Part shown: positions 5,039-58,638 of the stretch, one piece after another
How the letters are laid out: every line of letters starts with the position of its first letter
Numbering within the stretch: position 1 is the first letter of the stretch
Assembly (NCBI GenBank): GCA_016182555.1
Contig: JACPGJ010000008.1
Coordinates: 455,411 to 519,410, forward strand
From: Candidatus Kerfeldbacteria bacterium
GTDB taxonomy: Bacteria; Patescibacteriota; Patescibacteriia; UBA9570; XYC2-FULL-38-9
DNA length: 64,000 bases
Direction of reading: 5' to 3'
The notes under the pieces: generated by a model
Databases searched by the model: none
What the model was told of the DNA's origin: nothing
What the model saw: the letters and a program-made list of their open reading frames with translations, nothing else
Made by a program: the position numbers and the translations under genes

Positions 5039-6202
5039 TTATTGCGCAATTTGTTTCATATTTTTCCAACTTAACACGTGCCCTTGGCTACGTTGTTGAT
5101 TTTGCATACCGCCATAAATAACATATCCATGCTCTGCTGACATTCCAGCTAAATTCGTCCAGTACTGAATACCTTTAAAATAATCTGAAACAATTGTTTT
5201 ACCAGATTTAATTTCAATAGGAATTAATTGGTCACCTTGTTCAATAATACAATCAATTTCATGCCCTAAACGATCTCGCCAAAAATAACAATTGGGTTGT
5301 GCACCTTGATTAAAACGAAACTTCATCAATTCAGCAATAATAAAAGATTCAAATAAACCCCCATATAAATAATGCGTTTTTAATTGCGCAACATTCGTAA
5401 TATGCAATAAAGCACATGCTAAACCCGTATCATAAAAATAGAGTTTTGGCATTTTTATCAACCGTTTACTAAAATTTTTATGATGAGGCTGTAATAAAAA
5501 TACGATATAGCTAGACTCTAAAATACTCATCCACGCTTTTGCCGTATTATGCGTAATTCCACAATCATTGGCTAAAGAAGATAAATTCAGAATTTGTCCA
5601 ATTCTCCCAGCACATAATTTAATAAATTTTTGAAAGGCCTGTAGGTCAGAAATATTTTTAATCAAACGAACATCGCGCTCAACATACGTTTGAATATAAC
5701 TAGAATACCATTCAGAAGGATTCAGGTGTTGATCATAAATGCGTGGATAACATCCTGTAAACAAATAGCTCTCTATTGATTTTGTTTTGCTACTCGCTTG
5801 CTCTAATTCTTCTAAACTTAATGGTAATAACGTGAGCATTGCCACACGTCCGGCCAGAGTTTGCGAAACATGCTGTTGCAATAAATAGTTATGCGACCCT
5901 GTTAAGATAAATCGACCATTGACTGGCTGATTATCAATCATCGTTTGTAAATAGGATAGTAAATCTGGTACCCGTTGAATTTCATCAAAAATAGCCCCTT
6001 CTTGATATTGATCTAAAAATCTACGGGGGTCTGTTTGGGCAAATTCACGGGTATCTAAATCTTCGAGTGATACATACGGTTTATCACGAAACACCTTACG
6101 TACCAGAGTCGTTTTACCTGCTTGGCGTGGGCCAATGACTGCAATGGCTGGCATTTGTTGAGCCAATTGTTTTAACTTAACTTCTACATTACGCTTAATC
6201 AT
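5039..6202 (-). CDS. AAA+ ATPase of the DUF4143/COG1373 family
   Basis: 387-aa ORF; Walker A GPRQAGKTTL, Walker B-like IFDEIQRV, then TGSHNYLL; C-terminal region typical of DUF4143. Confidence 0.8.
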   Translation of the reverse strand: MIKRNVEVKLKQLAQQMPAIAVIGPRQAGKTTLVRKVFRDKPYVSLEDLDTREFAQTDPRRFLDQYQEGAIFDEIQRVPDLLSYLQTMIDNQPVNGRFILTGSHNYLLQQHVSQTLAGRVAMLTLLPLSLEELEQASSKTKSIESYLFTGCYPRIYDQHLNPSEWYSSYIQTYVERDVRLIKNISDLQAFQKFIKLCAGRIGQILNLSSLANDCGITHNTAKAWMSILESSYIVFLLQPHHKNFSKRLIKMPKLYFYDTGLACALLHITNVAQLKTHYLYGGLFESFIIAELMKFRFNQGAQPNCYFWRDRLGHEIDCIIEQGDQLIPIEIKSGKTIVSDYFKGIQYWTNLAGMSAEHGYVIYGGMQNQQRSQGHVLSWKNMKQIAQ

Positions 6203-6342: not shown

Positions 6343-7311
6343 TTAACCATTTTGTAACAGTGCGTAAGACTCAAGCAATGCATCATAGATAAATGATTCC
6401 AAAAAAATGTATTTCTCTTCCAGTTGCGCTCGCTGTAAATAAGTATAATACGCTTGTTTCTTCTCTTGCTTAATTAACACTGGAGGTAATCCATATTGCA
6501 GAGCTTGTGCATGCATGAGTAATCTTCCAACACGTCCATTGCCATCAGAAAACGGATGAATTTGTTCAAACTGGGCATGAGTTTTTGCCATGTGCATGAC
6601 AATATCTTCTTCAGATGAGTGCTGGAGATCCTGGCCAAACGTATACATTCGATCATCAATCTTCAAATAATTCGTCGTAGGAACATGCGAACCAACGATG
6701 CGTACCCCATGACGGCGGTACATACCTGCGTCAGATCGAATACCATTCATCAAAATGGAATGAATTTTCTTTATCCAATCTTCTGTTATTTGTTTTGGCT
6801 TTTTATGTTGTGTTAACCACTGCATCAAATTTCCCAGTGCAGCTTGATGATTTTTTGCTTCTTGATGCTCAACGACTGTTTTATCAGGAATGGTCACATT
6901 ATCAAAAATAACCGCTCGCACTTCCGGTTCAGTGAATGTACTCCCTTCAATACTATTCGTATGATATGTCAGTTCAAGGACAAATGTTTCATACAGATCT
7001 TGCCGTTGTACTATATACTGTAACGGATGAGGAAATTGTTTTTTCAGTTCCGCCACCCGTTGCTTTTTTACCAAAAGCTCAGAGTCCGTCACTTCCTTAA
7101 CACCCGTATATTCTTGATACAATAGATCAATCTTCGCTTGTGCAATTTTACGTGGTAAACTCTTCCCATTCACCCAACTATTGAGTGTGACAAAACTGAC
7201 CTGCAGCATTTGAGCAAGCTCTGTTTGCGTTTTACCGCTTACTTTCAAAATTCGTTGAATTTTTTGCTGTACTGTCATAAGTACAGTATAACAAACTTTA
7301 TAAAGAATCAC
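6343..7311 (-). CDS. Fic-family AMPylator fused to an N-terminal XRE-type HTH
   Basis: 322-aa ORF; Fic motif HPFSDGNGRVGRLL; inhibitory-helix-like TNSIEG upstream of it; N-terminal HTH (KTQTELAQMLQVSFVTLNSWVNGKSLP). Confidence 0.8.
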   Translation of the reverse strand: MILYKVCYTVLMTVQQKIQRILKVSGKTQTELAQMLQVSFVTLNSWVNGKSLPRKIAQAKIDLLYQEYTGVKEVTDSELLVKKQRVAELKKQFPHPLQYIVQRQDLYETFVLELTYHTNSIEGSTFTEPEVRAVIFDNVTIPDKTVVEHQEAKNHQAALGNLMQWLTQHKKPKQITEDWIKKIHSILMNGIRSDAGMYRRHGVRIVGSHVPTTNYLKIDDRMYTFGQDLQHSSEEDIVMHMAKTHAQFEQIHPFSDGNGRVGRLLMHAQALQYGLPPVLIKQEKKQAYYTYLQRAQLEEKYIFLESFIYDALLESYALLQNG

Positions 7312-7490: not shown

Positions 7491-8129
7491 ATGGAAAGAT
7501 ATAATCCTGACACAAGACAAATGCATGGCCCATTTGAAAAATTTCAATTACGAGATATCCATTGGAAAGATACATTACCTTATACATTGCAAAAAAAAGC
7601 AGAAAGGCTAGACCCCTATTTTGATGAGCAAACTAATGATTATTCAAATCAATACTTCCATCAAAATTTTATAATCAACAATGATCAATTGGATTTTTTT
7701 GGATTAAGAAAAGTTTTTAAAAAAAAGGATCTTCAAATATTACTTAGAATCTGTAACAATGATTCGTTTATTCATCTTAAAATAGAACTTAATAAATATA
7801 CTGACAATTATTGTGTAATCACTGCTATAAAAAAAGAACGTGGATCAGCTACTTTACCTTCTAAATTGGGTATACAATTATATGAAAAATTGTTTGATTT
7901 CTTACAAGATTTAGCTGATACAACAGGTAAGCCGGTTACGCATATTGTAAGACGTGCTCCTGAAGAAATGAGCGATACACCTCTTACAATAGAACGTTGG
8001 AATCAAATATTTTTTCCTATTCTAAATAAAAATGGGAGAGTATACACCCTCGATCCAGAAACTGAACATACTTTTGAACATACTTTTCTACCTGAATCAA
8101 AAAAACCAAATACTCTGCAAGCTGCCTGA
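7491..8129 (+). CDS. hypothetical protein (AT-rich, probably foreign)
   Basis: 212-aa ORF, markedly lower GC than neighbours, no recognisable motif; abuts the tRNA-Glu 3' side. Confidence 0.5.
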   Translation: MERYNPDTRQMHGPFEKFQLRDIHWKDTLPYTLQKKAERLDPYFDEQTNDYSNQYFHQNFIINNDQLDFFGLRKVFKKKDLQILLRICNNDSFIHLKIELNKYTDNYCVITAIKKERGSATLPSKLGIQLYEKLFDFLQDLADTTGKPVTHIVRRAPEEMSDTPLTIERWNQIFFPILNKNGRVYTLDPETEHTFEHTFLPESKKPNTLQAA

Positions 8130-8214
8130 AAAAAACTGTTATCTTCTATACACGCAAGTGCGATAGATAAAAAATGTCTAAAACGCATCAAAAAATGGAA
8201 TTTTTTGTTGTCTG

Positions 8215-8286
8215 TACCCGCACGGGGAATCGAACCCCGATTATCGCGTTGAGAACGCGGCGTCCTAACCGTTAGACGATGCGGGC
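8215..8286 (-). tRNA. tRNA-Glu (anticodon CTC)
   Basis: Minus-strand sequence gcccgcatcgtctaacggttaggacgccgcgttCTCaacgcgataatcggggttcgattccccgtgcgggta folds as a cloverleaf: 7-bp acceptor, TTCGATT T-loop, anticodon loop ttCTCaa. Confidence 0.8.
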
Positions 8287-8375: not shown

Positions 8376-9704
8376 TTATTGTTGAAGATATTGTGGCTGT
8401 ATCTCGTCTTTCCAATAATCGACACTGAAAAAATCATCCGGTGGAATATCTGTGATATTTTTTTGTTCATCAACAGTTGCGTGAGAAACTACTTGATTGT
8501 CTCGATACATGGTGTATTCCAGAATAGTATCATCCGTGGTATTAATAACAAATTCCACAGCTGGATCTGGTAAGCTTTCTTCTTCATTAAAAAATACATT
8601 TGACAGTTGATAACGTACACGTATGATTTCTTTACCAAGGTATTGTTCTTTTTCTTGTGACACCGGTTCTCCTAATTCATCAATACGCTGACGAATACTT
8701 AATGGATCCATAAATTGAGTTTCATATATATTTTCAATAGCGCGACCGAGAAAATCTTTTTGAACTGTTTTTTTATACTCTTCACGAAATGTTTCCAATT
8801 CTTCATTGCTAACAGTGCGAACCTGTATCGTATCAATATTCACTGCATACACTGCTGAGGAACGATCTCCGCTGACTATTTGAAATAAATGATCAGATGT
8901 ATTTTCCCTATGCGCGTTATATCGCATATCGCTGATATTTAGTGATACTTGATGTTGATATTTACCCTCAGCATCAACCCATGAATTAACGACGGATATG
9001 GAATCAATAAATCCAGATGCGCCAGTAGACATTTGTATATTCTCGTCATTTATTGATTCAGCGGTCGTCCAGGTAATGGATAGATCGCCACGAGGATCAT
9101 CTAAATGTTGTGCATGAACATTATTGAGAGCTAATGTTGTACCATTCATGAGTAATTTGGCAGTTCCCATATCAAAACCATCGCTACATTCAAATAAAAG
9201 ATTGACGTCCTTTACCGATGTAGTTTTTTCTTGTTGATAATCCACACGACAGCTTTGATTATCAACAGCGGAATAAAGAGTAGAACCTGTGAGCAAATCA
9301 AAACGCACATTGTTCCCCTGTTGCCAAATAGACACCTTCCCCATAAATCCACTGATTTCCTGATAACGAAATTCTGTAGAATTATTTGGATAAAAGGTAT
9401 TGTCAATAGATTTTGCAAGAACCTGGTTAATGTATATTCCATTTTTTGTATGTGGCCATGAACCAAATTCAATGATGCCAAAGACCGCAATAGCAAGCAC
9501 AACAGGAATGACACCAAAAGAAAATTTGTGTAATTTCATAAAACGAAATGGATGATGAGTAAATAGTGATGAAGAAATTAAATTTTCTTTCTGAAGAATG
9601 CGCGCAATGCGTTGTTGTAATTCACCTTGAAACACTTGGCGTTGTGGAATGATTTCACGTTGTAAAATTCGTGTTAATCGTTTGTTGAAGAAAAATTGTT
9701 TCAT
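8376..9704 (-). CDS. membrane-anchored protein, putative anti-sigma factor
   Basis: 442-aa ORF overlapping the ECF sigma gene by ATGA; ~60-aa cytoplasmic N-terminus, one TM (FGVIPVVLAIAVFGIIEF), large extracytoplasmic domain. Confidence 0.55.
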   Translation of the reverse strand: MKQFFFNKRLTRILQREIIPQRQVFQGELQQRIARILQKENLISSSLFTHHPFRFMKLHKFSFGVIPVVLAIAVFGIIEFGSWPHTKNGIYINQVLAKSIDNTFYPNNSTEFRYQEISGFMGKVSIWQQGNNVRFDLLTGSTLYSAVDNQSCRVDYQQEKTTSVKDVNLLFECSDGFDMGTAKLLMNGTTLALNNVHAQHLDDPRGDLSITWTTAESINDENIQMSTGASGFIDSISVVNSWVDAEGKYQHQVSLNISDMRYNAHRENTSDHLFQIVSGDRSSAVYAVNIDTIQVRTVSNEELETFREEYKKTVQKDFLGRAIENIYETQFMDPLSIRQRIDELGEPVSQEKEQYLGKEIIRVRYQLSNVFFNEEESLPDPAVEFVINTTDDTILEYTMYRDNQVVSHATVDEQKNITDIPPDDFFSVDYWKDEIQPQYLQQ

Positions 9705-10231
9705 AAATGTAATGGCGCTAATTGTTGACGAAGTATTTTTAATGCGCGAGATAGTGACGCGGCAACCGTACGCTCACCAATCTGCATAATTCCAGCAATT
9801 TCTTTATTGGATAGACCCGCTTGGTGACGCAGCAGCACGATCTCTTTTTGTCGTGACGGCAGTTGATCAATCGCCGCAAGTGCATGAGCAAGATTCAAAG
9901 AAAGATTTGCAACGGCATCACTCATTGCCGCAACAGGAATTTCAATAGCATCGATCGGAATATTGGTGTGTCGCTTTTTTCGGTAATAATCGATAAGCGC
10001 ATGACGAGCGATCGTGAAAATCCAACTACGCAATGTCGCTCCATCTTGTTCGTGGAAATCGTGAATATGTCGAACAACTTTTTCAAAAATGTCGCCAACA
10101 ATATCTTCTGTTTCTACCGTATTCCCAACACGAAAATAGATAAAGCGATACACGGGTTGAAAATAATCGTGAACAATAGTTTCGATTTGATATCTATGCA
10201 TAGGCAATATAAGGAAACGAATGAACAACAA
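9701..10231 (-). CDS. ECF-type sigma-70 family RNA polymerase sigma factor
   Basis: 176-aa ORF; region 2 (FIYFRVGNTVETEDIVGDIFEKV...ARHALIDYYRKK) and region 4 HTH (LPSRQKEIVLLRHQAGLSNKEIAGIMQIGERTV); start may be the internal Met at 10201. Confidence 0.8.
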   Translation of the reverse strand: MLFIRFLILPMHRYQIETIVHDYFQPVYRFIYFRVGNTVETEDIVGDIFEKVVRHIHDFHEQDGATLRSWIFTIARHALIDYYRKKRHTNIPIDAIEIPVAAMSDAVANLSLNLAHALAAIDQLPSRQKEIVLLRHQAGLSNKEIAGIMQIGERTVAASLSRALKILRQQLAPLHL

Positions 10232-10288
10232 AAATACTGCTTTTGGACGAATTCCGCAAGCAGTATTTTGAAATATTGTTATAGCAAT

Positions 10289-11323
10289 TTATACCGTTGC
10301 TTTACGCCCAACACCAATAGCCTGTTCTATTAAACGATGAGAATATCCATATTCGTTGTCATACCAGGCGACGACTTTCACCAAATTTCCGCCGACCACA
10401 TTGGTGAGCGCTAAATCAACGAGCGAAGAAACAGAGCGACCAATGACGTCGCTGGAGACAATAGGATCATTCGTGACTTCCAGGATGCCTTTGTAGCGCG
10501 GTGTCTCGGCAGCGCTCGTGAGAGCAGCGTTTACTTCTTCGGCAGTGACATCGCGCTTCAGTAACGCCGTAATATCGCTGACTGAACCGACCGGTACGGG
10601 TACACGAAATGCGAGGCCATCAAAAATACCGTTAAGCTGTGGAACTGTTTCCGCAGTAGCGATCGCTGCTCCGGTGGTGGTGGGAACAATATTGAGCGCA
10701 GCACTACGGGCACGACGAGGATCTTTATGAAAGCCGTCCACCAGGTTTTGATCTGCCGTGTATCCATGAATCGTGGACATCATCGCTTTTTCAATACCAA
10801 AAGTGCGCTCTAAAACTTCCATCACCGGCGCGATACAATTTGTGGTACACGATGCATTGGAAATGACTTGGTCTTTTGTTGCGTCAAAATCTTCGTGGTT
10901 CACACCAAGCACAAATGTACCAACAGGCTCCCCTGTTTTTGCTGGGGCGGAAATAATCACCACTTTCGCACCGCCCGCGAGGTGCCTTGCAGCCCCCTCT
11001 TTATTCGTAAACACACCCGTACATTCCAACACAACATCAACTGCCAAATCTTTCCACGGCAATTTTTCCGGTTCTTTTTCCGCGAATTTTTTGAACTGCA
11101 CGCCGTCAACGGAAATGAATCCGGAACCAGAGCTCACTGTATGTGGAAACGCACGATACACCGAGTCATATTTCAATACTTCTGCGGCTTGGGCTTCTGT
11201 TGATAGGTCGTTAATCGCAACGATTTCTACTTCATCAGCATGATGCTCATACGCAATTTTGAATGCGATTTTACCAATGCGTCCAAAACCGTTAATAGCG
11301 ATACGAATTTTTTTCTGTGCCAT
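10289..11323 (-). CDS. gap: glyceraldehyde-3-phosphate dehydrogenase
   Basis: 344-aa ORF; NAD-binding INGFGRIGK and catalytic ASCTTNCIAP motifs. Confidence 0.9.
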   Translation of the reverse strand: MAQKKIRIAINGFGRIGKIAFKIAYEHHADEVEIVAINDLSTEAQAAEVLKYDSVYRAFPHTVSSGSGFISVDGVQFKKFAEKEPEKLPWKDLAVDVVLECTGVFTNKEGAARHLAGGAKVVIISAPAKTGEPVGTFVLGVNHEDFDATKDQVISNASCTTNCIAPVMEVLERTFGIEKAMMSTIHGYTADQNLVDGFHKDPRRARSAALNIVPTTTGAAIATAETVPQLNGIFDGLAFRVPVPVGSVSDITALLKRDVTAEEVNAALTSAAETPRYKGILEVTNDPIVSSDVIGRSVSSLVDLALTNVVGGNLVKVVAWYDNEYGYSHRLIEQAIGVGRKATV

Positions 11324-14109: not shown

Positions 14110-15372
14110 TTAGGAAGATGTTAAGTAGGCATCAATAAACGCATCGGGGTTTTTAGGATGACTCTCTGCAGCACGCTTGATAACAGCCTGATTCACTCGA
14201 CCTTGATATTTCTCGGTAAGACGATCTATTGCCTCAAGATATTCATCAATGAACCCATCAGGGTCTTTCAAGCTATTCAAAGCAGCATATTTGATAACAG
14301 TTTGACCCACTCGATCATGATATTTCTGACTCAGACGATCCATGATCTTAAGATATCCGTCAATAAAACCATCAGGATCCTTGGGATTACTCTCTGCGGC
14401 ATGCTTAATAACGCTTTGATCCACTCGACTTTGATATTTCTCGGTTAGATGACTCACGGTCTTAAGATATCCGTCAATAAAACCATCAGGGTCTTTCAAG
14501 CTATTCAAAGCAGCATATTTGATAACACCCTGATCAACTCGATCCTGATATTTCTCAGTAAGACGATCTACTGCCTCAAGATACTCATCAATAAAACCAT
14601 CAGGATCCTTGGGATTGCTCTCTGCGGCACGTTTGATAACTCTTTGATCCACTCGATCCTGATACTTCTGACTCAAACGATCCACGGTCTTAAGATATCC
14701 GTTAATGAAACGATCAGGATCCTTGGGATTGCTCTCTGCGGCACGTTTGATAACACTTTGATCCACTCGATCCTGATACTTCTCAGTAAGACAATCCACT
14801 GCCTCAAGATACTCATCAATAAAACCATCAGGATATCTAGGATTACTTACCGCGGCACGTTTGATAACTCTTTGATCCACTCGATCCTGATACTTTTCAG
14901 CGAGGCGCTCTATTTCTTTTGGATTGAGCCAATGAGATAACTCTGCAAATGCGAGTGTTGTCAAAAATGAATCCCCACGCCGATGTGATTGGCGCAGTGA
15001 CAAAATAAAATCAAACACGGCTTGATCAAAAATGGTTGCAAATTGTACTGTATTATGCAAAAGACTTTCTGGTGATTTTTTTTCTAATCTTGCTACAATT
15101 TTAATTTTTTTTTGCAGTGTGGATTGAAATACTTTTATAACATCATCGACTGATATTGCCCGTGCCTCTTCAAAATCTTTACTTATTTTCTTCCATTCAT
15201 TCTCTATCCATTCTCGATTGGCTTGAACAGCTACGGCAACAGCGGCTTCAAGTGTTGGTTTCACCTGTTCTTTAAAAGCTGTAGTTCCGACACCCTTAAT
15301 AGTAATTCCTTCCGTTAATGCTTGGCTTTTCGCTTTTCGGCCTTCGCGTATGAGGCTAGGTTTATAACGCAT
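14110..15372 (-). CDS. hypothetical protein with seven near-identical 38-aa tandem repeats
   Basis: ORF 14110..15441 trimmed to the Met at 15372 to avoid overlap with aspS; ~180-aa unique N-terminus, then repeats EKYQDRVDQxVIKRAAESNPKDPDGFIDEYLEAVDRLT. Confidence 0.7.
   Translation of the reverse strand: MRYKPSLIREGRKAKSQALTEGITIKGVGTTAFKEQVKPTLEAAVAVAVQANREWIENEWKKISKDFEEARAISVDDVIKVFQSTLQKKIKIVARLEKKSPESLLHNTVQFATIFDQAVFDFILSLRQSHRRGDSFLTTLAFAELSHWLNPKEIERLAEKYQDRVDQRVIKRAAVSNPRYPDGFIDEYLEAVDCLTEKYQDRVDQSVIKRAAESNPKDPDRFINGYLKTVDRLSQKYQDRVDQRVIKRAAESNPKDPDGFIDEYLEAVDRLTEKYQDRVDQGVIKYAALNSLKDPDGFIDGYLKTVSHLTEKYQSRVDQSVIKHAAESNPKDPDGFIDGYLKIMDRLSQKYHDRVGQTVIKYAALNSLKDPDGFIDEYLEAIDRLTEKYQGRVNQAVIKRAAESHPKNPDAFIDAYLTSS
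14113..14898. repeat. 114-bp tandem coding repeat, about 7 copies
   Basis: Near-identical 114-nt units visible in DNA (e.g. ...catcagggtctttcaagctattcaaagcagcatatttgataac... recurs at a 228-nt spacing); they generate artifactual antisense ORFs. Confidence 0.8.
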
Positions 15373-15376
15373 ATTT

Positions 15377-16765
15377 CTATCTTTCTTTGATCTGAATACC
15401 AAGTTCGTCCAGTTGTTGCTGTGCGACAACAGAAGGCGCACCCATCAACAAATCTCGTCCTTCGGCGGTTTTTGGAAATGCAATGACTTCGCGAATGCTT
15501 GGTTCATTGGCCAAAATCATGACAATGCGGTCAATACCCGGGGCAATTCCGCCATGAGGTGGTGCGCCATACGTAAACGCATTCAACATGTGACCAAAAC
15601 GAGATTCTTGCTCTTCTTTGCTAATGTTGAGCAGATTAAAAATTTTCTGCTGCATCGTCTGTTCATGAATACGAATGCTACCACTGGCAAGTTCATATCC
15701 ATTCAAAACTAAATCGTATGAATTTGCGCGAACACTCAATGGTTCGTTATCGAGCTTTGCAACATCTTCCGGTTTCACCGAACAGAATGGATGATGTTTA
15801 GCTTGTAAACTTCCATCATCCCCTTCTTCAAACATGGGAAAATCGAGCACCCAGCAAAATGCTAACTCATTTGGGTCTTCCGGATTTTTTCGTAAATCTG
15901 GTTTATCATGACCAAATTTTTCCATCGATTCTGCATACGTTAACCGTGGGAATGGAACGGTGGAAAGATGTTTTTCTGGCGCAGTCTGTTTCACCATTTC
16001 AATAAACATCGCTTCGGTGTATTGCAAAATATCTTCTTGGGTAATGAAAGACATTTCATAATCGAGTTGCGTAAATTCTGGTTGGCGGTCTCCGCGTGAA
16101 TCTTCATCTCGAAAGCACCGCGCAATTTGGAAGTATCGTTCTAACCCCGACACCATCAATAATTGTTTAAACTGTTGCGGCGATTGTGGCAATACATAAA
16201 ATTTTCCTTTTTGTAAACGCGATGGAACGATGTACTCTCGTGATCCTTCTGGTGTTCCTTTCATCATAATAGGCGTTTCAATTTCTAGAAAATCATGTTC
16301 ACCCATATACCTGCGGAAAAACGCAACAACCCGGTCACGCAACATGATATTCTTCTTCATTCGTTCTGTACGCAAATCAAGATAGCGGTATTTCATTCGC
16401 AATTCTTCGTTGATCGGCTGTGTATCTTGCGCAACATCAAACGGCGGCGTCTCCGCAGTGTTCAAAATAGTGAGCGCGAGGGCTTCAATTTCAATGGTGC
16501 CAGTTGGCGAGTTGGCATTCACCTGTTTTTCCGGGCGCGCATTTACTTGGCCACGAATTTCAACCACAAATTCCGGGCGCAGTCTTGCGGCTTCTTCCAA
16601 TGCCTCTTTATGATTCGGTAAAAAGACCACTTGGCAAATGCCTGAGCGGTCACGAAGATCAATAAAAATAAGCTTTCCCATGTCGCGGCGGACGTGTACC
16701 CAGCCTTTTAACACCACCTCCTGCCCTGTTTTTTGCAGGGTATCAATAATCCATGTACGTTCCAT
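15377..16765 (-). CDS. aspS: aspartyl-tRNA synthetase, short form without GAD insertion
   Basis: 462-aa ORF; N-terminal OB fold; class II motifs including FRDEDSRGDRQPEFTQLDYEMSF and GAPPHGGIAPGIDR. Confidence 0.85.
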   Translation of the reverse strand: MERTWIIDTLQKTGQEVVLKGWVHVRRDMGKLIFIDLRDRSGICQVVFLPNHKEALEEAARLRPEFVVEIRGQVNARPEKQVNANSPTGTIEIEALALTILNTAETPPFDVAQDTQPINEELRMKYRYLDLRTERMKKNIMLRDRVVAFFRRYMGEHDFLEIETPIMMKGTPEGSREYIVPSRLQKGKFYVLPQSPQQFKQLLMVSGLERYFQIARCFRDEDSRGDRQPEFTQLDYEMSFITQEDILQYTEAMFIEMVKQTAPEKHLSTVPFPRLTYAESMEKFGHDKPDLRKNPEDPNELAFCWVLDFPMFEEGDDGSLQAKHHPFCSVKPEDVAKLDNEPLSVRANSYDLVLNGYELASGSIRIHEQTMQQKIFNLLNISKEEQESRFGHMLNAFTYGAPPHGGIAPGIDRIVMILANEPSIREVIAFPKTAEGRDLLMGAPSVVAQQQLDELGIQIKER

Positions 16766-44643: not shown

Positions 44644-45024
44644 TTATAACATCTTCATTTCGATGTCAACCCCTGCTGGCAAACTCAAGTTTGAGAGCGC
44701 ATCAATCGTCTTTGGATTGGCACTGACAATGTCGATCAATCGCTTGTGCACCCGCATTTCAAACTGGTCACGGGCGTCTTTACGAATGAACGTGGATTTC
44801 AAAACCGTATACTTTTTCTTTTCTGTTGGAAGAGGGACTGGACCAACCACGCTCGCACCGGTGCGGACCACCGTTTCGATAATAATTTTGGTTGTTTTAT
44901 CGATAATTTTATTATCGTAGGCACGAATTTTCACACGAATACGCGCAGAAACTGGTGCCTGCTCTTCGGTGTTGTTGATCTGTTCTGTGGTCTTTGTTGC
45001 TGACATGTTGGTATAAAAGAGCAT
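44644..45024 (-). CDS. rpsJ: 30S ribosomal protein S10
   Basis: IRVKIRAYDNKIIDKTT; start may be the internal Met at 45006. Confidence 0.9.
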   Translation of the reverse strand: MLFYTNMSATKTTEQINNTEEQAPVSARIRVKIRAYDNKIIDKTTKIIIETVVRTGASVVGPVPLPTEKKKYTVLKSTFIRKDARDQFEMRVHKRLIDIVSANPKTIDALSNLSLPAGVDIEMKML

Positions 45025-45038
45025 TCGTCTCGTACATC

Positions 45039-45081
45039 TCTCGGGGCCCAGGCCCTCCTAGCCGTATCCAGAGCCCCGAGA
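45039..45081 (-). promoter_or_regulatory. GC-rich hairpin in the tuf-rpsJ intergenic leader
   Basis: tctcggggc ... gccccgaga 9-bp stem with 25-nt loop; no T-run; positioned like an S10-operon leader structure. Confidence 0.35.
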
Positions 45082-45095
45082 ATATGACGACGATA

Positions 45096-46286
45096 TTATG
45101 CAATAATCTTAGTTATCACTCCTGCGCCAACGGTTCGGCCACCCTCACGGATAGCAAAGCGTTGTTTTTCTTCCATAGCGACCGTCTTTCCAAGTTTGAC
45201 AGTAAAGGTAATCGTATCGCCAGGCATGACCATTTCGGTGCCTTCTTTCAATATCACCTCACCAGTCACATCAGTTGTACGCATATAGAATTGTGGCTTG
45301 TATCCTTTCGTGAATGGCGTAGCGCGTCCACCTTCTTCTTTAGAAAGAATATAGACTTCAGCTTCAAATTCCGTGTGTGGGGTAATGCTACCTGGTTTTG
45401 CGAGCACTTGACCACGTTCTACTTCATCTTTCTTTGTACCACGAAGCAATAACCCAGCATTGTCACCAGCCAAACCTTCATCTAACTGCTTGTTAAACAT
45501 TTCAATACCAGTCACAACAGTCTTTTTGGTGTCCATCAAACCAACAATCTCTAATTCTTCGTTAATTTTTACCTTACCGCGTTCAATACGACCAGTCACC
45601 ACCGTTCCACGACCTTCAATAGAGAAGATGTCTTCAATAGGCATCAAGAATGGCTTGTCGGTATCCCGTTCTGGTTGAGGGATATATTCATCCAACGTTT
45701 TCAACAATTCCACAATCGGCTTCGCTGCTTCTGCATCTGTTGGGTTTTCCAACGCTTTCAAGGCTGAACCACGAATAATAGGTGTTTCATCGCCAGGGAA
45801 TTCGTATTTATTGAGCAAGTCGCGAATTTCCACTTCAACCAACATCAACAATTCTTCATCTTCGACTTGGTCACATTTGTTCAAGAATACCACAATCGAA
45901 GGCACACCAACCTGACGAGCCAACAAAATATGTTCGCGTGTTTGAGGCATTGGGCCGTCTGTTGCAGAAACAACCAAAATCGCGCCGTCCATTTGAGCCG
46001 CACCAGTGATCATGTTCTTCACGTAGTCAGCATGTCCTGGACAGTCAACGTGTGCGTAGTGACGGTTATCCGTTTCGTATTCAACGTGGGAGGTATTAAT
46101 GGTAATACCACGCTCGCGTTCTTCTGGAGCGTTATCAATATCTGCAAATCCTTTGTTTTGAGCGGATTTTCCTTGAGCGTTACAGACCGCCAAAATAGCG
46201 GCTGTAGTTGTGGTTTTTCCATGGTCGACGTGACCAATGGTACCAACGTTGACGTGCGGTTTGGCGCGATTAAACTTGTCTGCCAT
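45096..46286 (-). CDS. tuf: elongation factor Tu
   Basis: 396 aa; [21 protein letters not shown]. Confidence 0.97.
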
Positions 46287-46496
46287 ACATTAGCAATTTG
46301 TTAATAAAGTAAAATAAGTCAATCAAACTCTTCGCACAAAGAATGTACGAAGGTAGAAATAACGATAATAGTTTTACGAGAAGCTGTCAAGTGTTTGGCA
46401 GGCTTCGATGCAAAACAGAATGATTATAACGACAAAGCAATAAAATGACAAGAATTACTGGTGTTTATGGTTTGTGGATAAGTAGACCAAATTTCA

Positions 46497-46961
46497 TTAT
46501 CTTTTCTCTCTCAAGCGACCAGAAAGAAATGGAGATGGAAGATAATCTTCTATGGTAGCAACTATCACTCGAGATTTATCAGTATTTGAATAGAGTGTGA
46601 GCATTGGCTCTACGCTCGCCATTTGGCTAAATTCAAATATAATTTGCCGGCACCGACCGCACGGACCACTTGGTGCATCGACAGACATACCGTCGTTGCG
46701 GACAATAGTTGCAATCGCGGTGAATTCACGCTCCCCTGCCATATTGGCCGCGAGGAAGGCCGCAACTTCAGCGCACGCAGTCATGCCGGTTGTCGAGAGC
46801 GTGACGTTTGCACCCGTATAGATTTTCCCACTTTTTCCGCGGATGGCGGCACCAACAACAAAATTCGACCGAGGATTCCAGCCTCGCTCCATCGCTTTTT
46901 CTGCAGCGTTGAGTAATTCTTGTTGTTCCGGTTCAAGTGCTTCCAATCGTTTTTCGGTCAT
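46497..46961 (-). CDS. cdd: cytidine deaminase (homotetrameric type)
   Basis: Trimmed to MTEKRLEAL; zinc ligands CAE and PCGRCRQ; noticeably higher GC than neighbours. Confidence 0.75.
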   Translation of the reverse strand: MTEKRLEALEPEQQELLNAAEKAMERGWNPRSNFVVGAAIRGKSGKIYTGANVTLSTTGMTACAEVAAFLAANMAGEREFTAIATIVRNDGMSVDAPSGPCGRCRQIIFEFSQMASVEPMLTLYSNTDKSRVIVATIEDYLPSPFLSGRLREKR

Positions 46962-47007
46962 TGTGGTGTATTTAATACTATAGTGAAAAAAGTATATCAG
47001 AAATAGA

Positions 47008-48270
47008 TTATAACTCCCAGGCACGAATATGCTCTATGCCATTCCGGTTCCCCAGTGAAATATCATCCAAGCTGATCACTATTTTTTTATACTGATCTCG
47101 AATGGCTTCCAAATTTCCAAATTCTCTTTCTATGGTTTCCGTAGAATCCAATATATACGCTACTTGCACATAGATGCGCTCCTTTCCTTTTTCCAGAACA
47201 AAGTCTACCTCTTTATTACGCAACTCCCCCACCCGCACCGTATAGCCCTGCGCTTTGTAATGAAGAAAAATCGCATTCTCCAGAATATGCCCAATGTTGC
47301 TATCTGCTTGCTGCAAACCTTGCGAACGCAATGCCAAATCATTCAAATAATATTTTTTTGTGTTGGTGAACACGGCCTTTCCGCGAATATCAAAACGGTC
47401 GACGGCGTGAATAAGATACGTTTGCTCCAGATAGGTGAGATATTTCCCCAACGTTTCATTATTGGTGGGGGTGTGGTTACTATTCAAATAACGAACAATC
47501 TTTTCTGTAGAAAACAGACTGCCGATGTTGCCCGCAATAAATTGAAAAAGCTGTTCGAGCAACACCGCATTTTTTACTGCATATTTTTGCACCACATCTT
47601 GAAACAAAATAGTATTTACTAATGCGTGAATATAATGCGTTTGAATCTCTGTGTCTTTTTGCAAATGATATAATTCCGGCAAACCACCCAATTCCAAATA
47701 GCGCACAAACTGTTCTTTGGTTTTTGGTACATCAAAAAATTGCGTAAATTCATCAAACGAAAACGATTGCACTTCAAACGGCACATACCGGCCACTTAAA
47801 TAGGTAGAGAGTTCTGAAGAGAGCATGGTGGAATTTGAACCGCTGATATACACCTCATACGCATCACGGTAATCTTGCGAAAAAGAATTGATTGCCCTCT
47901 CCCACTGATCAATTTCTTGCACCTCATCTATAAAGAGAAAAACTTTACCTTTCACCTGTTCTGTTTTTTTGTAGAGCTCAACGAGTTTTGCTAAATCGGT
48001 GTGCGTTTTCACCATTTCAAAATCGACGATCTCTTTATTGAGATAGAAAATATTTTTCGGGTTCACGCCTTGCGCAATCAATTCTTTCATTATTTGACGC
48101 AGCAAATAGCTCTTTCCCACGCGCCGCTGCCCCATAATGACTTTTATTAAACCATTATTGATGAAGGGTTTTATGCGTTCAAGATAGGTTGTTCTGGTTA
48201 AACCCGTTGGTATTTCTTGATTTTTCTCCCAAAAATTGGATTTTTTGAGATATTCTAATATTTCGTTCAT
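47008..48270 (-). CDS. AAA+ ATPase of the DUF4143/COG1373 family (second copy)
   Basis: 420 aa; Walker A GQRRVGKSYL, Walker B LFIDEVQEI, sensor ISGSNSTML; C-terminal DUF4143-like region. Confidence 0.8.
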   Translation of the reverse strand: MNEILEYLKKSNFWEKNQEIPTGLTRTTYLERIKPFINNGLIKVIMGQRRVGKSYLLRQIMKELIAQGVNPKNIFYLNKEIVDFEMVKTHTDLAKLVELYKKTEQVKGKVFLFIDEVQEIDQWERAINSFSQDYRDAYEVYISGSNSTMLSSELSTYLSGRYVPFEVQSFSFDEFTQFFDVPKTKEQFVRYLELGGLPELYHLQKDTEIQTHYIHALVNTILFQDVVQKYAVKNAVLLEQLFQFIAGNIGSLFSTEKIVRYLNSNHTPTNNETLGKYLTYLEQTYLIHAVDRFDIRGKAVFTNTKKYYLNDLALRSQGLQQADSNIGHILENAIFLHYKAQGYTVRVGELRNKEVDFVLEKGKERIYVQVAYILDSTETIEREFGNLEAIRDQYKKIVISLDDISLGNRNGIEHIRAWEL

Positions 48271-48346
48271 ATTTGAATTTTATGTTATTTTTACATATAT
48301 TTCAAGTATACTTGAATTTTATGCATCTGTCAATGAATACATAACT

Positions 48347-48375
48347 TTGACACAAGAAATATTGGGGGTATGATA
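48347..48375 (+). promoter_or_regulatory. sigma-70-type promoter TTGACA-N16-TATGAT
   Basis: TTGACAcaagaaatattgggggTATGAT about 70 nt upstream of the RelA/SpoT-like gene. Confidence 0.4.
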
Positions 48376-48446
48376 AAATTATGAAATACTGATGTAGTAT
48401 ACAGAAGTCGAATAATTTATTTTTTTATTCTTAGAAATAAGCCAAA

Positions 48447-49502
48447 ATGTCATTCGCGAAACCATCAAAAGTGTCCAGAAGTCGAATAAATAAAGCCGGT
48501 AAAACTCTTAAAAAAGAGATTATTAATTCAGATTTTGAATCTGCAGTAAAGTTAGCTGATAATTGGAGAGCGTGTCATGCCTATCCCATTAATACCTTCC
48601 AATCAACATTGAGAACCAAGCTTCGAAAATATCAAAATGAACCTATCGTAGCGCAACGTCTTAAACGCATGCCAACAATTATAGATAAACTGCAACGATA
48701 TCCAAACATGCAGCTAACAACAATGCAAGATATTGGAGGTATTAGGGCAATTCTAGGATCAATCGAAGATGTTTATAAACTAGCAAAAGACTACAGAGAG
48801 AACAAACGCCTTCCTCATGAACTTTATAATGAGAATAATCATATTCAGACTCCGAGAAATGAAGATGGCTATCGTAGTTTGCATCTAATGTACAAATACC
48901 GAAATCCACAAGCAAAAGAATATGATGGTCTACGAGTAGAGCTACAAATACGTACAAAAACCCAACATATTTGGGCTACAGCAGTTGAAACTATGGGAAC
49001 ATTTCTAGGACAAGCGCTTAAATCAAGACAGGGGGACAAAGACTGGCTCGATTTTTTTGCCACAGTATCATCTGCATTTGCTTGCATTGAGAAAACACCA
49101 GTATTACCTAGACATCAAAACATGACAAAACTAGAAATATTTAAGGCGGTTGCAAACACAGAAAAAAAACTCGGCGCATTAGAAAAAATGAATGCATTCT
49201 ATAAAGCCGCAGATGAAATCACAGGAAAACGCAAAAGTGAAGGGTCATCGTATCATCTAATAATACTAAACTCATTAGAAAAAACTGTTGAAGTAAAACC
49301 ATATAGTCGAGATGAGTTCAAAAAGGCAGTTGCAGATTACGCTCAAATTGAAGCTGAGGCAGTGAAGGGGAAAAAAATCGAACCAGTTCTCGTATCTGCT
49401 GGTCCATTAAGCACGCTAAAACGCGCATATCCCAACTTTTTCCTTGATATTTCTGAATTCTGTAAAGCTGTAGCAGAAATAGTAGATAAAACAAAAAAGT
49501 AA
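48447..49502 (+). CDS. standalone RelA/SpoT synthetase-domain protein (toxSAS-like), 351 aa
   Basis: Rel/Spo nucleotidyltransferase motifs DIGGIRAI, GYRSLHL, ELQIRTKTQHIWATAVETMG; basic N-terminus KVSRSRINKAGKTLKK; ~130-aa C-terminal extension; AT-rich. Confidence 0.75.
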   Translation: MSFAKPSKVSRSRINKAGKTLKKEIINSDFESAVKLADNWRACHAYPINTFQSTLRTKLRKYQNEPIVAQRLKRMPTIIDKLQRYPNMQLTTMQDIGGIRAILGSIEDVYKLAKDYRENKRLPHELYNENNHIQTPRNEDGYRSLHLMYKYRNPQAKEYDGLRVELQIRTKTQHIWATAVETMGTFLGQALKSRQGDKDWLDFFATVSSAFACIEKTPVLPRHQNMTKLEIFKAVANTEKKLGALEKMNAFYKAADEITGKRKSEGSSYHLIILNSLEKTVEVKPYSRDEFKKAVADYAQIEAEAVKGKKIEPVLVSAGPLSTLKRAYPNFFLDISEFCKAVAEIVDKTKK

Positions 49503-49550
49503 AAAGAGCCGGCGAGATGCCGACCCTTTTTATTTTCTGCGACTCAAAAT

Positions 49551-51689
49551 TTATTCTTCGTCTTCAGTGGCGACTGAACCTCCACGCGCTTCAATCACTT
49601 CTTTGGCCACATTCTTTGGCACTTCAGCATATTTCTCGAATTCCATGGAATAGTTTGCACGACCTTGAGACATCGAACGAAGGCTGGTCGCATAACCAAA
49701 CATTTCGGCCAATGGGACTAAGGCACGCACAACTTTCACAGTTCCGCGGTCGGTCATTTCCTGAATTTGTCCACGTTTAGAATTGATATCGCCCATCACA
49801 TCACCCATGAACTGTTCGGGAGTCATCACTTCTACTTTCATAATCGGTTCCAACAATACTGGGTCGGCTTTACGTGCCGCATTACGGAACGCTTTTGAAC
49901 CCGCAATTTTGAACGCCGCTTCTGAAGAGTCGACTTCATGGTACGAACCATCAAGCAAGGTGACGCGAATATCTAACAATGGATAGCCAGCCAAAATACC
50001 GCGATCCAGTGCTTCACGAATACCTTTTTCAACAGCAGGAATGTATTCATTTGGAATAGATGCTCCTTTAATCGCATTCTTGAATTCAAAATGTTCAACC
50101 TCTTCACCCTCTTCCACTTCGCTCTCCAACACCTGTAATGGTTCAACTTTCAATACAACATGACCATATTGACCGCGACCACCAGTCTGTTTCACATACT
50201 TCTCTTCTCCTTCTGCGGAGCGTTTAATCGTTTCTTTATAAGCCACCTGTGGTTTACCGGCAGTGGCTTCCACCCCAAATTCGCGCTTCATGCGTTCAAT
50301 AATCACTTCCAAATGCAGTTCACCCATACCAGCCAAAATAGTTTGATTGGTTTCTTCGTCTGAACGCACACGCAAGGATGGGTCTTCATCTGTCAGGCGC
50401 GCGATAGCCATACCCATTTTTTCTTGGTCAGCTTTAGTTTTCGGTTCAATGGCAATAGAGATCACCGGTTCTGGTGCGATAATTGGTTCCAAAATAATTG
50501 GATGATCTTCATCGCATAATGTGGTGCCAGTTTTTGCATCTTTCACACCGACTGCTGCGGCGATATCACCGGCATGAATTTCACTAATTTCTTCACGAGA
50601 ATTTGCATGCAAACGTACCAAACGCGAGATGCGTTCTTTTTTACCTGTCGCCATGTTGAGCACATACGAACCCGATTTCAATACGCCGGAATAGACGCGA
50701 ATGAAAATGAGTTTGCCCACAAATGGATCTGAAGCAATTTTGAAAGCAAGTGCTGCCAATGGTTCGCCATCTTCTGGTTTACGAGAAATTTTTTGTTCTA
50801 AATCGTCTGGGTCTGAACCAACCGTTGGTGGAATGTCGAGTGGAGATGGCAAATACGCAACCACCGCATCCAACATAAACTGCACGCCTTTGTTTTTGAG
50901 CGCTGAACCGCAGAGTACTGGAACAACGTTGTTTGCAATCACGGCTTGGCGCAATACTCGGTGAATATCTGCTTCAGATGGTTCATTGCCTTCCAAGTAC
51001 GCGTTCATGAGCGCTTCATCATTTTCGACAATCGCTTCAATGAGCTGTGTGCGGTACATGGCTGCGCGTTCTTTTTCTTCTGCCGGAATGTCTACTTCTT
51101 CAAATTCACGACCCATTTCATCTTTATAGATCACGGCTTTTTGACGAATGAGATCGATGATGCCTTGGAATGTATCAGCCGCACCAATAGGCAGCTGAAT
51201 TGGATGCGCGTTTTTGGTGAGCCGGTCATGGATCATCCCCAAATCTTTGTAGAAATCTGCACCTGTGCGATCCATTTTGTTAATAAAACACATGCGAGGA
51301 ACTTTGTATTCTTCTGCATAATGCCAGTTAGTTTCGGATTGCGGTTCCACACCGGCAACACCGTCGAATACCACCACCGCGCCGTCGAGCACGCGCAGAG
51401 AACGCTTCACTTCTACGGTAAAGTCGATGTGGCCAGGAGTATCGATGAGGTTGATTTTATGCTCTTTCCAAAAACAGGTGGTCGCTGCAGCGGTAATGGT
51501 GATACCACGTTCTTGTTCCTGTTCCATCCAGTCCATGGTTGCTTCACCTTCATGCACTTCACCAATTTTGTGAGTCTTGCCGGTGTAATACAACACCCGT
51601 TCAGACACCGTCGTTTTTCCGGCGTCGATGTGTGCAATGATACCGATGTTCCGCGTATCTTGTAATGGATATACTTTTTCTTCAGACAT
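49551..51689 (-). CDS. fusA: elongation factor G
   Basis: 712 aa; [17 protein letters not shown]. Confidence 0.97.
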
Positions 51690-51703
51690 ATATTGTGTGT
51701 ATG

Positions 51704-52168
51704 TTAAGCGAAGTGAGCAAAGGCACGGTTAGATTCTGCCATGCGTTGCACATCTTCTTTCTTCTTCATTGCCGCACCTTCATTGCGGCTCGCATCCATC
51801 AGTTCCAACGCGAGTTTTTCGCGCATTGGTTTACCGGCACGGGCTGATGCAGCTTCAATGATCCAACGAGATGCTAATGTGAAGCGACGTTCTGGGCGCA
51901 CTTCAACTGGCACCTGATAATTCGCCCCACCAATACGGCGAGCACGTACTTCCAATGATGGCGACACATTTTGCATCGCTTTCATCCACACATCATAGCC
52001 TGGTTCACCGGTTTTCTTTTCAATGTAGTCAAAGGCACCATAGACAATTTTGGTTGCCACGGTTTTTTTGCCACGTTGCATGATGTAGTTAATAAATTTC
52101 GAAACTTGTGTTGATTTATATCGTGGGTCTGGCGCGACATTGCGTTTTGGAGCTTGTTTACCTCTCAT
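51704..52168 (-). CDS. rpsG: 30S ribosomal protein S7
   Basis: 154 aa; S7 signature; downstream of rpsL. Confidence 0.92.
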
Positions 52169-52194
52169 ATCTTTATTGGTTCAGTGTAGTTAAA

Positions 52195-52614
52195 TTATTT
52201 CTTTGGGCGTTTTGCGCCATACTGGGAGCGACTTTGCATTCGTTTTTCTACGCCTTGCGTATCATAGACTCCACGAACAATACGATAGCGAACACCTGGT
52301 AGGTCTGGCACGCGACCACCTTTAATCAACACAATGCTGTGCTCTTGCAAGTTGTGTCCTTCTCCAGGAATATATGCCGTTACTTCCATTCCGTTGGATA
52401 AACGGACACGAGCAATTTTTCGCAGAGCGGAGTTTGGTTTCTTTGGTGTGGTGGTGGTGACTTTCACACAAACGCCACGTTTAAAGGCCGCACCTTTTGG
52501 CAGCTTCTTTCGTTTACGATGAAGGGCATCGAAGGTGGATTGAAGGGCTGGGGTTTTGGATTTTCTCTTGGCTGTACTGCGCCCTTTGCGCACCAATTGA
52601 TTCATTGTTGGCAT
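52195..52614 (-). CDS. rpsL: 30S ribosomal protein S12
   Basis: Trimmed to [12 protein letters not shown]; [10 protein letters not shown]. Confidence 0.92.
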
Positions 52615-52845
52615 GGAAATGCAAATTAAAAATAAAGAATGATCGTTATCATTCATTCACGATTGAAACAGTTTACAGAGTATGATCTTCTCAGTTCATT
52701 GAAGGTCACATCCAGGAAACATTGATACATATTTTTTCAAGCCTGTCAGCCATGACAAACTCGAGGAACCGAAGCGATTATAAAATATGTATAAAATATT
52801 GTCAACCGATATAAAATATGATACTATACAAATTAATATATTCTT

Positions 52846-53094
52846 ATGGGTACAGAAATATTTCCAAAAATTCTTTTCTTCATTCAATTTGTGGTTGGCA
52901 CCATCGGTGTGGTCACATTGCTCACTGTGCTGATTTCATTTATCAGCCTGCTGCGTCACCGTAACGATAAAAAAATGATCACCCAAATGCGTGAACAAAT
53001 TGTGAGCGGTTTGATCGCGTTTATTATTATTCTCATTGTTTACGTGCTCTTCAGCGGCATTGGTCCAGCATTTCGTGTCCTCTTTTCAAAGTAG
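52846..53094 (+). CDS. small two-TM membrane protein
   Basis: 82-aa hydrophobic ORF; no motif recognised. Confidence 0.35.
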   Translation: MGTEIFPKILFFIQFVVGTIGVVTLLTVLISFISLLRHRNDKKMITQMREQIVSGLIAFIIILIVYVLFSGIGPAFRVLFSK

Positions 53095-58052: not shown

Positions 58053-58227
58053 ATCGTATTTTGGCTAATCATTAATCTCTCCTTCCCAGTATAGCAACGG
58101 CTTCAAAAAAGTCGAGCTGATCACTTGCAAACTAATCATGAGACCCCCTTGCATTGCAACACTATTCAGCCTATAATAAATTAAGACGTCCCCACCCTTT
58201 GTGGGTTTTATTATTTTCTTTTTTGCT

Positions 58228-58638
58228 ATGGATGAGGACGTTAAATGGTTACTACAAAAATTGGTTACCTGGACAAAACTCAAGCTGAAAATACATATTT
58301 TACAAGATACTCATCTTGTTTACTTTCACGAAAGAGAAATCTGGTGGTGTTCCCTAGGCATAAATATAGGATATGAACAAAACGGAAAAAATCAGTATTT
58401 TGAACGACCAGTGTTAGTGGTAAAAAAATTCAACAGATATTTACTATGGGCAGTTCCCTTAACCAGTAAACAAAAATCGGGAAAATTTTATTATGAAACA
58501 TGGTATGAAGGAAAAAAATACTCTATCATTTTGTCTCAAATGAGAGCAATCAGTAGCAAACGACTGTTGAGAAAAATACGCACTGTACCGCAGTCAGAAT
58601 TTACTGAGGTAAAAAAACAGATAAAACTCTTTTTATAA
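58228..58638 (+). CDS. MazF/PemK-fold endoribonuclease toxin homolog (solitary)
   Basis: Track ORF 58201 starts at a GTG inside a hairpin and is trimmed to the ATG at 58228; EREIWWCSLGINIGYEQNGK...ERPVLVVKKFN...LWAVPLTSK...SQMRAISSKRLLRKIRTV matches the MazF/PemK pattern. Confidence 0.6.
   Translation: MDEDVKWLLQKLVTWTKLKLKIHILQDTHLVYFHEREIWWCSLGINIGYEQNGKNQYFERPVLVVKKFNRYLLWAVPLTSKQKSGKFYYETWYEGKKYSIILSQMRAISSKRLLRKIRTVPQSEFTEVKKQIKLFL

Follow-up and report, generated by a model that had tools for sequence, protein, structure and literature searches.

A full-length homologue of the fused toxin-antitoxin CapRelSJ46 between fusA and tuf in a Candidatus Kerfeldbacteria genome

CapRel has already been described as the most widely distributed subfamily of the toxic small alarmone synthetases (toxSAS), and the fused form, in which toxin and antitoxin share one chain, is predominant. 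One such protein, CapRelSJ46 from Salmonella phage SJ46, pyrophosphorylates tRNA, and the CapRels that have been characterised respond to differing trigger proteins. Here we describe a gene on the plus strand of a 64,000-nucleotide stretch of DNA from a Candidatus Kerfeldbacteria bacterium (the whole stretch is called the window below), at positions 48447..49502, whose 351-aa product is a full-length homologue of CapRelSJ46. We put the probability that this gene encodes a single-polypeptide CapRel-type toxin-antitoxin, acting through the anti-phage mechanism proposed below, at roughly 0.75. An initial annotation of the same DNA had offered either a toxSAS or a fused CapRel-like module, and it is the second option that is supported, CapRelSJ46 being the best full-length relative by both sequence and predicted fold.

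Structurally, the pseudo-zinc-finger domain (pZFD) of CapRelSJ46 is without Zn-binding cysteines and has three antiparallel strands in one sheet, the second and third joined by a helix, with helical anchors on either side (PMC9712102). In its synthetase (toxSYNTH) domain, Y155 is the catalytic tyrosine of the G-loop and R79 and R116 coordinate the adenine of ATP (Zhang et al. 2022, PMC9712102). Autoinhibition needs the YXXY motif (Y352 and Y355) together with A77, V338, L339, A341, and A351 (PMC9712102). Inhibition at the donor site by a pZFD/YXXY-type element goes with the tRNA-targeting toxSAS, and in the enzymes that make (pp)pApp, Tis1-like domains block the acceptor site (PMC11782079). 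Bipartite toxSAS such as Mycobacterium CapRel:ATcapRel, PhRel of Phrann (gp29:gp30), and FaRel2:ATfaRel2 have a toxSYNTH toxin and a pZFD/YXXY-type antitoxin that blocks the ATP donor site, a likeness to what is predicted here, but their toxin and antitoxin are separate genes rather than parts of one chain. A further point of comparison is provided by the PDC families of PADLOC, which are untested candidates whose source genes lay inside BREX, DISARM, and type I restriction-modification (RM) loci, a form of "guilt by embedding".

Domain content, sequence relatives and predicted fold

The open reading frame (ORF) starts with ATG, and its reported length of 351 aa holds, as do the three synthetase motifs: DIGGIRAI at aa 95-102, GYRSLHL at aa 141-147, and ELQIRTKTQHIWA at aa 165-177. 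The initial annotation had also proposed a search with Pfam RelA_SpoT, and this domain is the sole Pfam match (aa 70-178, E 4.6e-16), with no HD, TGS, or ACT domain in the Pfam scan, in line with the claim that the hydrolase, TGS, and ACT domains are lacking. The protein scores 27.7 bits with TIGR00691, the model for long RelA/SpoT homologues (RSH), whose cut-off is 499. In NCBI an identical protein (100%), named "RelA/SpoT domain-containing protein", comes from a Candidatus Kerfeldbacteria metagenome-assembled genome. About 170 aa lie beyond the Pfam domain, rather than the extension of about 130 aa first reported, and are made up of linker helices, a pseudo-zinc-finger of about 55 aa, and two C-terminal helices. 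The elements of the coding sequence (CDS), some of them taken from an AlphaFold2 (AF2) model, are as follows.

48447..49502, plus strand: CDS of the candidate fused CapRel-type toxSAS toxin-antitoxin, PADLOC PDC-S33 family (ORF, PDC-S33, 7ZTB/9ERV, Foldseek)
48447..49016, plus strand: putative N-terminal toxin part, aa 1-190, with leading helices and the toxSYNTH nucleotidyltransferase core (Pfam RelA_SpoT, motifs)
Within the toxSYNTH core, key residues: R71; D95-R100 (DIGGIR); G-loop G141-H146 (GYRSLH, including Y142); E165-T170 (ELQIRT)
49017..49232, plus strand: linker ("anchor") helices, aa 191-262 (AF2 helices 198-215, 228-242, and 244-259)
49233..49400, plus strand: predicted pZFD, the putative antitoxin and sensor domain, aa 263-318, strand-strand-helix-strand (AF2)
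49401..49499, plus strand: C-terminal helical anchor with the hinge motif Y328-P-N-F331 at nt 49428..49439 (alignment to CapRelSJ46)

The linker helices align to the alpha7-alpha9 region of CapRelSJ46, and the sequence of the pZFD (aa 263-318) holds no Cys.

The best sequence match in the PDB is CapRelSJ46 (7ZTB, 9ERV), with query aa 8-347 aligned to residues 14-371 at E 4e-34, and BLASTP aligns the two proteins along their full length at 30% identity (E 2e-41). With a family profile made from 75 diverse relatives, CapRelSJ46 is matched at 1.2e-79, RelQ at 3e-22 over the N-domain only, and FaRel2 marginally at 1e-3; no structure of Tas1 or another (pp)pApp synthetase is among the PDB matches of the profile at E up to 1. 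In annotated phage genomes, phage SJ46 gives the best and only full-length match, and Phrann is not among the phage matches at E below 1e-5. The homology is collinear from end to end and lies within a single ORF in both cases (351 aa here, 373 aa in CapRelSJ46). RelQ and RelP, which the initial annotation had considered as possible best homologues, align as single-sequence PDB matches to aa ~62-183 only (E about 1e-9 to 3e-9), and their E-values are worse than that of CapRelSJ46 by 25 orders with the single sequence and by 57 orders with the family profile. The same annotation had allowed that the C-terminal region might be an unrelated domain; it is instead the CapRel antitoxin/sensor region.

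These comparisons bear on a reading in which the protein is a housekeeping small alarmone synthetase (SAS) of the RelQ/RelP kind, supplying (p)ppGpp in a reduced genome of the candidate phyla radiation (CPR) and having no role as a toxin or in defence. RelQ and RelP, which are non-toxic makers of (p)ppGpp, do share the synthetase fold and motifs over the aligned segment, CPR genomes are reduced, the gene sits among translation genes, and the 64 kb of the window are all of the genome that is in view, so that another RSH elsewhere in it is possible. However, RelQ and RelP are without the C-terminal antitoxin region that makes up the extra 170 aa, and the NCBIfam equivalog for RelQ (YjbM) gives only 58.1 bits against a cut-off of 320, with 351 aa here compared with about 210 aa for the single-domain RelQ form. 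The low GC, the patchy distribution across phyla at about 60% identity, and the differing contexts of the closest relatives point to horizontal transfer rather than to a core function. A housekeeping role is thus very improbable.

The predicted fold agrees with the sequence matches in pointing to CapRelSJ46. The AF2 model, computed from an input of 38 homologues, has a predicted local distance difference test (pLDDT) score of 83.6 and a predicted TM-score (pTM) of 0.82, and places strands at aa 269-275, 280-286, and 311-317 with a helix at aa 288-306, followed by helices at aa 321-327 and 336-350. As modelled, the C-terminus has the pseudo-zinc-finger topology of CapRelSJ46, and the order of elements is also the same, with anchor helices, pZFD, and C-terminal helices in succession, although the beta6-beta7 loop of the pZFD is shorter and leaves an 8-residue gap in the alignment. 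Foldseek against the PDB puts 7ZTB and 9ERV on top, with about 354 aligned columns and a TM of 0.69-0.71; the remaining matches are other SAS structures that cover the N-terminal domain only (TMq about 0.35-0.44).

Functional residues and a proposed mechanism

The residues on which catalysis and autoinhibition depend in CapRelSJ46 were followed in an alignment of the query, CapRelSJ46, and 129 cluster representatives, with conservation counted over 130 family sequences. The correspondence, with the CapRelSJ46 residue given first, is as follows.

R79, query R71: kept in 130/130
R116, query R100: kept in 129/130
Y155, query Y142: kept in 130/130
A77, query A69: mostly kept in the family
V338, query V314: mostly kept in the family
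L339, query L315: mostly kept in the family
A341, query S317: Ser in the family majority
A351, query A327: mostly kept in the family
Y352, query Y328: Y in 121/130
Y355, query F331: Y in 104/130, F in 21/130

The catalytic and ATP-site residues of toxSYNTH are therefore identical to those of CapRelSJ46, and the interface V, L, and A residues are kept apart from the Ser at the position of A341. The hinge lies at the equivalent place, LKRAYPNFF aligning to LKKAYPNYF of CapRelSJ46, so that the first Tyr of YXXY is kept as Y328 and the second is Phe (YPNF rather than YPNY). Within the query's own clade, YXXF is the norm. Because the functional positions of CapRelSJ46 are retained, the enzyme looks catalytically competent, and judging from the aligned residues the autoinhibition device is probably present as a conservative YXXF variant.

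A mechanism can be proposed by homology. In the resting state the protein would be closed, with the C-terminal pZFD folded onto the synthetase and the hinge Y328-P-N-F331 occupying the site of ATP, the pyrophosphate donor, between R71 and R100. Infection would then yield a phage-associated protein that binds the C-terminal domain and stabilises the open form. Once freed, toxSYNTH would act as an ATP-dependent pyrophosphotransferase that, by homology, most likely pyrophosphorylates the 3'-CCA ends of tRNA; translation would stop and the phage would fail to propagate, a form of abortive infection. The trigger itself is not predictable, as the characterised CapRels respond to different proteins. 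For the same reason, the sensing of phage capsid put forward in the initial annotation is probably better read as the sensing of some phage-associated protein.

The choice of substrate separates this mechanism from one in which the protein is an autoinhibited nucleotide alarmone synthetase that makes (pp)pApp, like FaRel or Tas1, or (p)ppGpp, and exerts its effect through nucleotide pools. The RelA_SpoT fold is generic, all of the nucleotide-binding motifs are intact, the substrate is not readable from sequence, and RelQ and RelP are the next-best structural relatives, all of which would suit such an enzyme. Nevertheless, the nearest characterised relative, CapRelSJ46, modifies tRNA, and tRNA is favoured over nucleotides here because donor-site inhibition of the pZFD/YXXY kind accompanies tRNA-targeting enzymes, the (pp)pApp makers using the Tis1-like acceptor-site block. 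No gene for a Tis1-like protein or a small alarmone hydrolase (SAH) is adjacent or present in the window. The weak FaRel2 match and the lack of Tas1 among the PDB matches, given above, also speak against a nucleotide synthetase, which we consider unlikely.

The PDC-S33 family and the case for phage defence

The hidden Markov model (HMM) for PADLOC PDC-S33 matches the protein over practically its full length (E 8.6e-120, aa 7-348 against profile positions 6-343 of 349), and by this match the CapRel-like proteins and the candidate family PDC-S33 are one and the same. Unlike CapRel, PDC-S33 is a candidate by embedding to which no mechanism has been attached, and the literature searched gave neither a published link between the two nor a report of CapRel in Patescibacteria. 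PHROG 4773 is also matched end to end (E 1e-98). An exhaustive search returned 5031 clusters at 50% identity with E up to 1e-3, 1352 of them at E up to 1e-30, and nearly all family clusters are 340-370 aa long and align end to end. In a scan of one genome per species, 238 genomes carry homologues, including Patescibacteria, Pseudomonadota, Nitrospirota, Planctomycetota, Bacteroidota, Chloroflexota, and archaea, and relatives occur on 21 viral contigs in IMG/VR.

The surroundings of the homologues show little that recurs. When all ORFs within 3 kb of the gene were clustered over 80 loci, no recurrent neighbour family was found, and the 145 immediate neighbours, compared with PADLOC and Pfam, are mainly housekeeping genes. 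Defence-type genes are scattered among these 145 and consist of DNA methylases (5), type III restriction subunits, MADS genes, and integrases. Since neighbour families do not recur and the immediate neighbours are mainly housekeeping genes, the solo organisation is consistent with a single gene that forms a complete system and moves on its own. One homologue, at 70% identity in Candidatus Gottesmanbacteria (L003), has a gene for a NUDIX hydrolase 3 nt downstream and then one for an HD_3 phosphohydrolase (9048..9485 and 9711..10301). Their products could reverse pyrophosphorylation, and the arrangement is seen in that lineage only. A NUDIX/HD "reset enzyme" as a partner of the family, prompted by this homologue, was rejected as it is absent from the other loci among the 80.

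The pZFD is the most variable segment across the broad family (130 representatives). Within the close clade its pairwise identity is 66%, compared with 73% for toxSYNTH, so that in its own clade the domain is not hypervariable in the manner of CapRelSJ46.

The full-length matches to PDC-S33 and PHROG 4773, the viral relatives, and the position of some homologues beside type III RM, MADS, and integrase genes support the fused CapRel reading. The features by which such a protein can be recognised were found here, namely the synthetase residues, a predicted pseudo-zinc-finger topology, a single ORF, and CapRelSJ46 as best full-length relative, with YXXY represented only as YXXF. Several observations weigh against it. 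Identity to the characterised CapRelSJ46 is only about 30%, the second Tyr of the motif is Phe, and A341 is Ser. The confidence of the AF2 model is lowest exactly at the YPNF hinge, between the helices at aa 321-327 and 336-350, where pLDDT falls below 50, and the model differs from the open crystal form by 9 A rmsd, which reflects a different domain arrangement only. The neighbours of homologues are mostly housekeeping genes, leaving a modest defence-island signal, and the pZFD of the close clade equals the rest of the protein in conservation, unlike the fast-evolving sensor of enterobacterial CapRels. Finally, the host is a tiny, uncultured CPR bacterium of groundwater type for which, to our knowledge, neither a phage nor a trigger is known.

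Some of these points would suit a selfish or stress-responsive fused toxin-antitoxin that has no phage trigger, either an addiction module or a brake on translation that answers a signal from the host cell or from episymbiosis. In the close clade, conservation of the sensor domain is high even between very different hosts, the neighbours are mostly housekeeping genes, and the fusA-tuf gap of related CPR genomes contains other toxin-antitoxin genes. However, all characterised fused CapRels defend against phage, the family has been independently found embedded in defence systems, and relatives are present on viral contigs and in a PHROG family. A function with no phage trigger is accordingly a good deal less probable than defence, and we hold it to be improbable.

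A related and speculative idea, to which we give low odds, concerns what the sensor detects. In the PDC-S33 clade, sensor and enzyme domain are conserved to about the same degree when Patescibacteria, Nitrospirota, Planctomycetota, Bacteroidota, and archaea are compared. CapRelEbc senses a phage protein together with FtsZ. The clade with a YXXF hinge and a conserved sensor may likewise sense one conserved cue rather than fast-evolving capsids, for example a protein that many phages share or a host factor that infection disturbs, and in genome-reduced episymbionts the protein could double as a general brake on translation.

The relationship links PDC-S33, with thousands of sequences in many phyla, to the mechanistically understood CapRel, which gives an untested candidate family a concrete mechanism that can be put to the test. 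It would also extend fused CapRel-type immunity to CPR/Patescibacteria, in which CRISPR is largely lacking and little is known of defence. Being conserved and small, the gene is an easy candidate for heterologous toxicity and trigger screens. The gene adds to the known CapRel family and is not a new kind of system, and the present picture of toxSAS biology is unchanged.

The islet between fusA and tuf

Between fusA and tuf lies a small accessory islet, in which the CapRel-like gene is a solo gene. The order is rpsL, rpsG, and fusA on the minus strand, then the CapRel-like gene on the plus strand, and then an AAA_14/DUF4143 ATPase, a cytidine deaminase, and tuf. It is chromosomal in a CPR bacterium, in contrast to the prophage-borne gene of SJ46. 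The distance from fusA to tuf is 3264 nt (46287..49550), compared with a median of 107 nt in 40 metagenomic loci, 31 of which have less than 400 nt. The arrangement is identical in two independent assemblies, and the locus is therefore not a chimera. Features around the gene are as follows.

47008..48270, minus strand: neighbouring AAA_14 + DUF4143 ATPase, 420 aa, PADLOC PDC-S01 (Pfam, PADLOC)
48271..48446, no strand: AT-rich divergent intergenic region shared with the AAA_14/DUF4143 gene, 176 nt, GC 0.23 (divergent promoter-like sites)
48347..48374, plus strand: promoter-like site TTGACA-16-TATGAT (11/12 consensus positions, pattern match only)
48396..48415, plus strand: upstream copy of a 20-nt direct repeat (18/20 identical, exact 14-nt core at 48402..48415), in the putative 5' untranslated region
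48470..48489, plus strand: second copy of the 20-nt direct repeat, within codons 8-15 of the CapRel-like CDS
49500..49532, no strand: bidirectional terminator-like hairpin between the convergent CapRel-like gene and fusA (both strands, consensus match only)

The GC content of the gene is 0.367 and its GC at third codon positions (GC3) is 0.251, the former being the 7th lowest of the 72 ORFs in the window, for which mean GC is 0.439 (standard deviation 0.045) and mean GC3 is 0.401 (standard deviation 0.076). The gene is thus AT-rich as first described, to a moderate rather than an extreme degree. The closest relatives of the protein, at 70-75% identity, are found in unrelated gene contexts, and together with the low GC this indicates that the gene was horizontally acquired.

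The claim that no small antitoxin ORF is adjacent, with 48 nt from the stop of the gene to the convergent stop of fusA (49551), stands, as neither the 176-nt upstream spacer nor the downstream spacer contains a credible small ORF. A promoter of the gene's own had likewise been claimed, and a candidate was found in the TTGACA-16-TATGAT site, a consensus match only, which lies 73 nt upstream of the start codon. The 14-nt direct repeat reported in the same annotation is exact, although its coordinates, given as 48403 and 48477, were one base off and are 48402 and 48476. Its chance expectation is 0.02, and the window has no other close repeat of this sort except for one tandem array. It is not an in-frame duplication, its upstream copy is covered by no ORF, and none of 73 homologous loci from other genomes contains it. 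We consider it a lineage-specific feature with no visible functional link. Two further repeats were noted. A 27-nt imperfect direct repeat with a palindrome (48258..48323, 81% identity, spacing 39 nt) overlaps the AAA_14/DUF4143 gene at its start and promoter region and could be an operator, and a 20-nt inverted repeat lies inside the CapRel-like CDS (49042..49061 and 49368..49387, 90% complementary, 306 nt apart). An Rfam scan of 45000..53000 gave one sub-threshold chance match only.

The ATPase at 47008..48270 (AAA_14 E 4.7e-32, DUF4143 E 2.1e-18, PDC-S01 E 1.4e-136, GC 0.39) raises the question of a two-gene system. The two divergent genes have the 176-nt AT-rich control region in common, with promoter-like sites facing both ways, both are of below-average GC, and both are PADLOC candidates. 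However, a search of 80 other loci up to 6 kb from the CapRel-like gene gives no AAA_14/DUF4143 homologue, no neighbour family recurs at these loci, and a second AAA_14/DUF4143 gene in the window stands alone. As the ATPase is not conserved beside the CapRel-like gene elsewhere, it is treated as a separate resident of the islet and not as a conserved partner, and a joint system is the least likely of the readings considered, with very little probability left to it. The second AAA_14 + DUF4143 gene is at 5039..6202 on the minus strand, and it too has below-average GC.

In most bacteria about 100 nt separate fusA and tuf, and in CPR-like genomes toxin-antitoxin and defence cargo seems to land repeatedly in this gap. 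In Candidatus Daviesbacteria (L041, 5799..7774), the gap contains a CapRel homologue of 54% identity together with a Phd/ParE pair. In four further loci (L107, L108, L113, and L131), of a type picked because their elongation factor G (EF-G) is among the closest to that of the host, the gap contains Phd-like, PemK, or HicAB genes. Within the metagenome collection, the EF-G closest to that of the host is only 68% identical.

Elsewhere in the window, a second low-GC islet lies beside a tRNA-Glu gene (8214..8286) and comprises ORFs at 6343..7311 (minus strand), 7491..8129 (plus strand), and 8376..9704 (minus strand), which encode an HTH-Fic (helix-turn-helix and Fic) protein and two products that have no Pfam match (GC 0.30 and 0.36). 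A gene for a toxin of the PemK/MazF family is present at 58201..58638 on the plus strand (GC 0.32). A tandem repeat with a period of 114 nt occupies 14346..14870, inside the ORF at 14110..15441.

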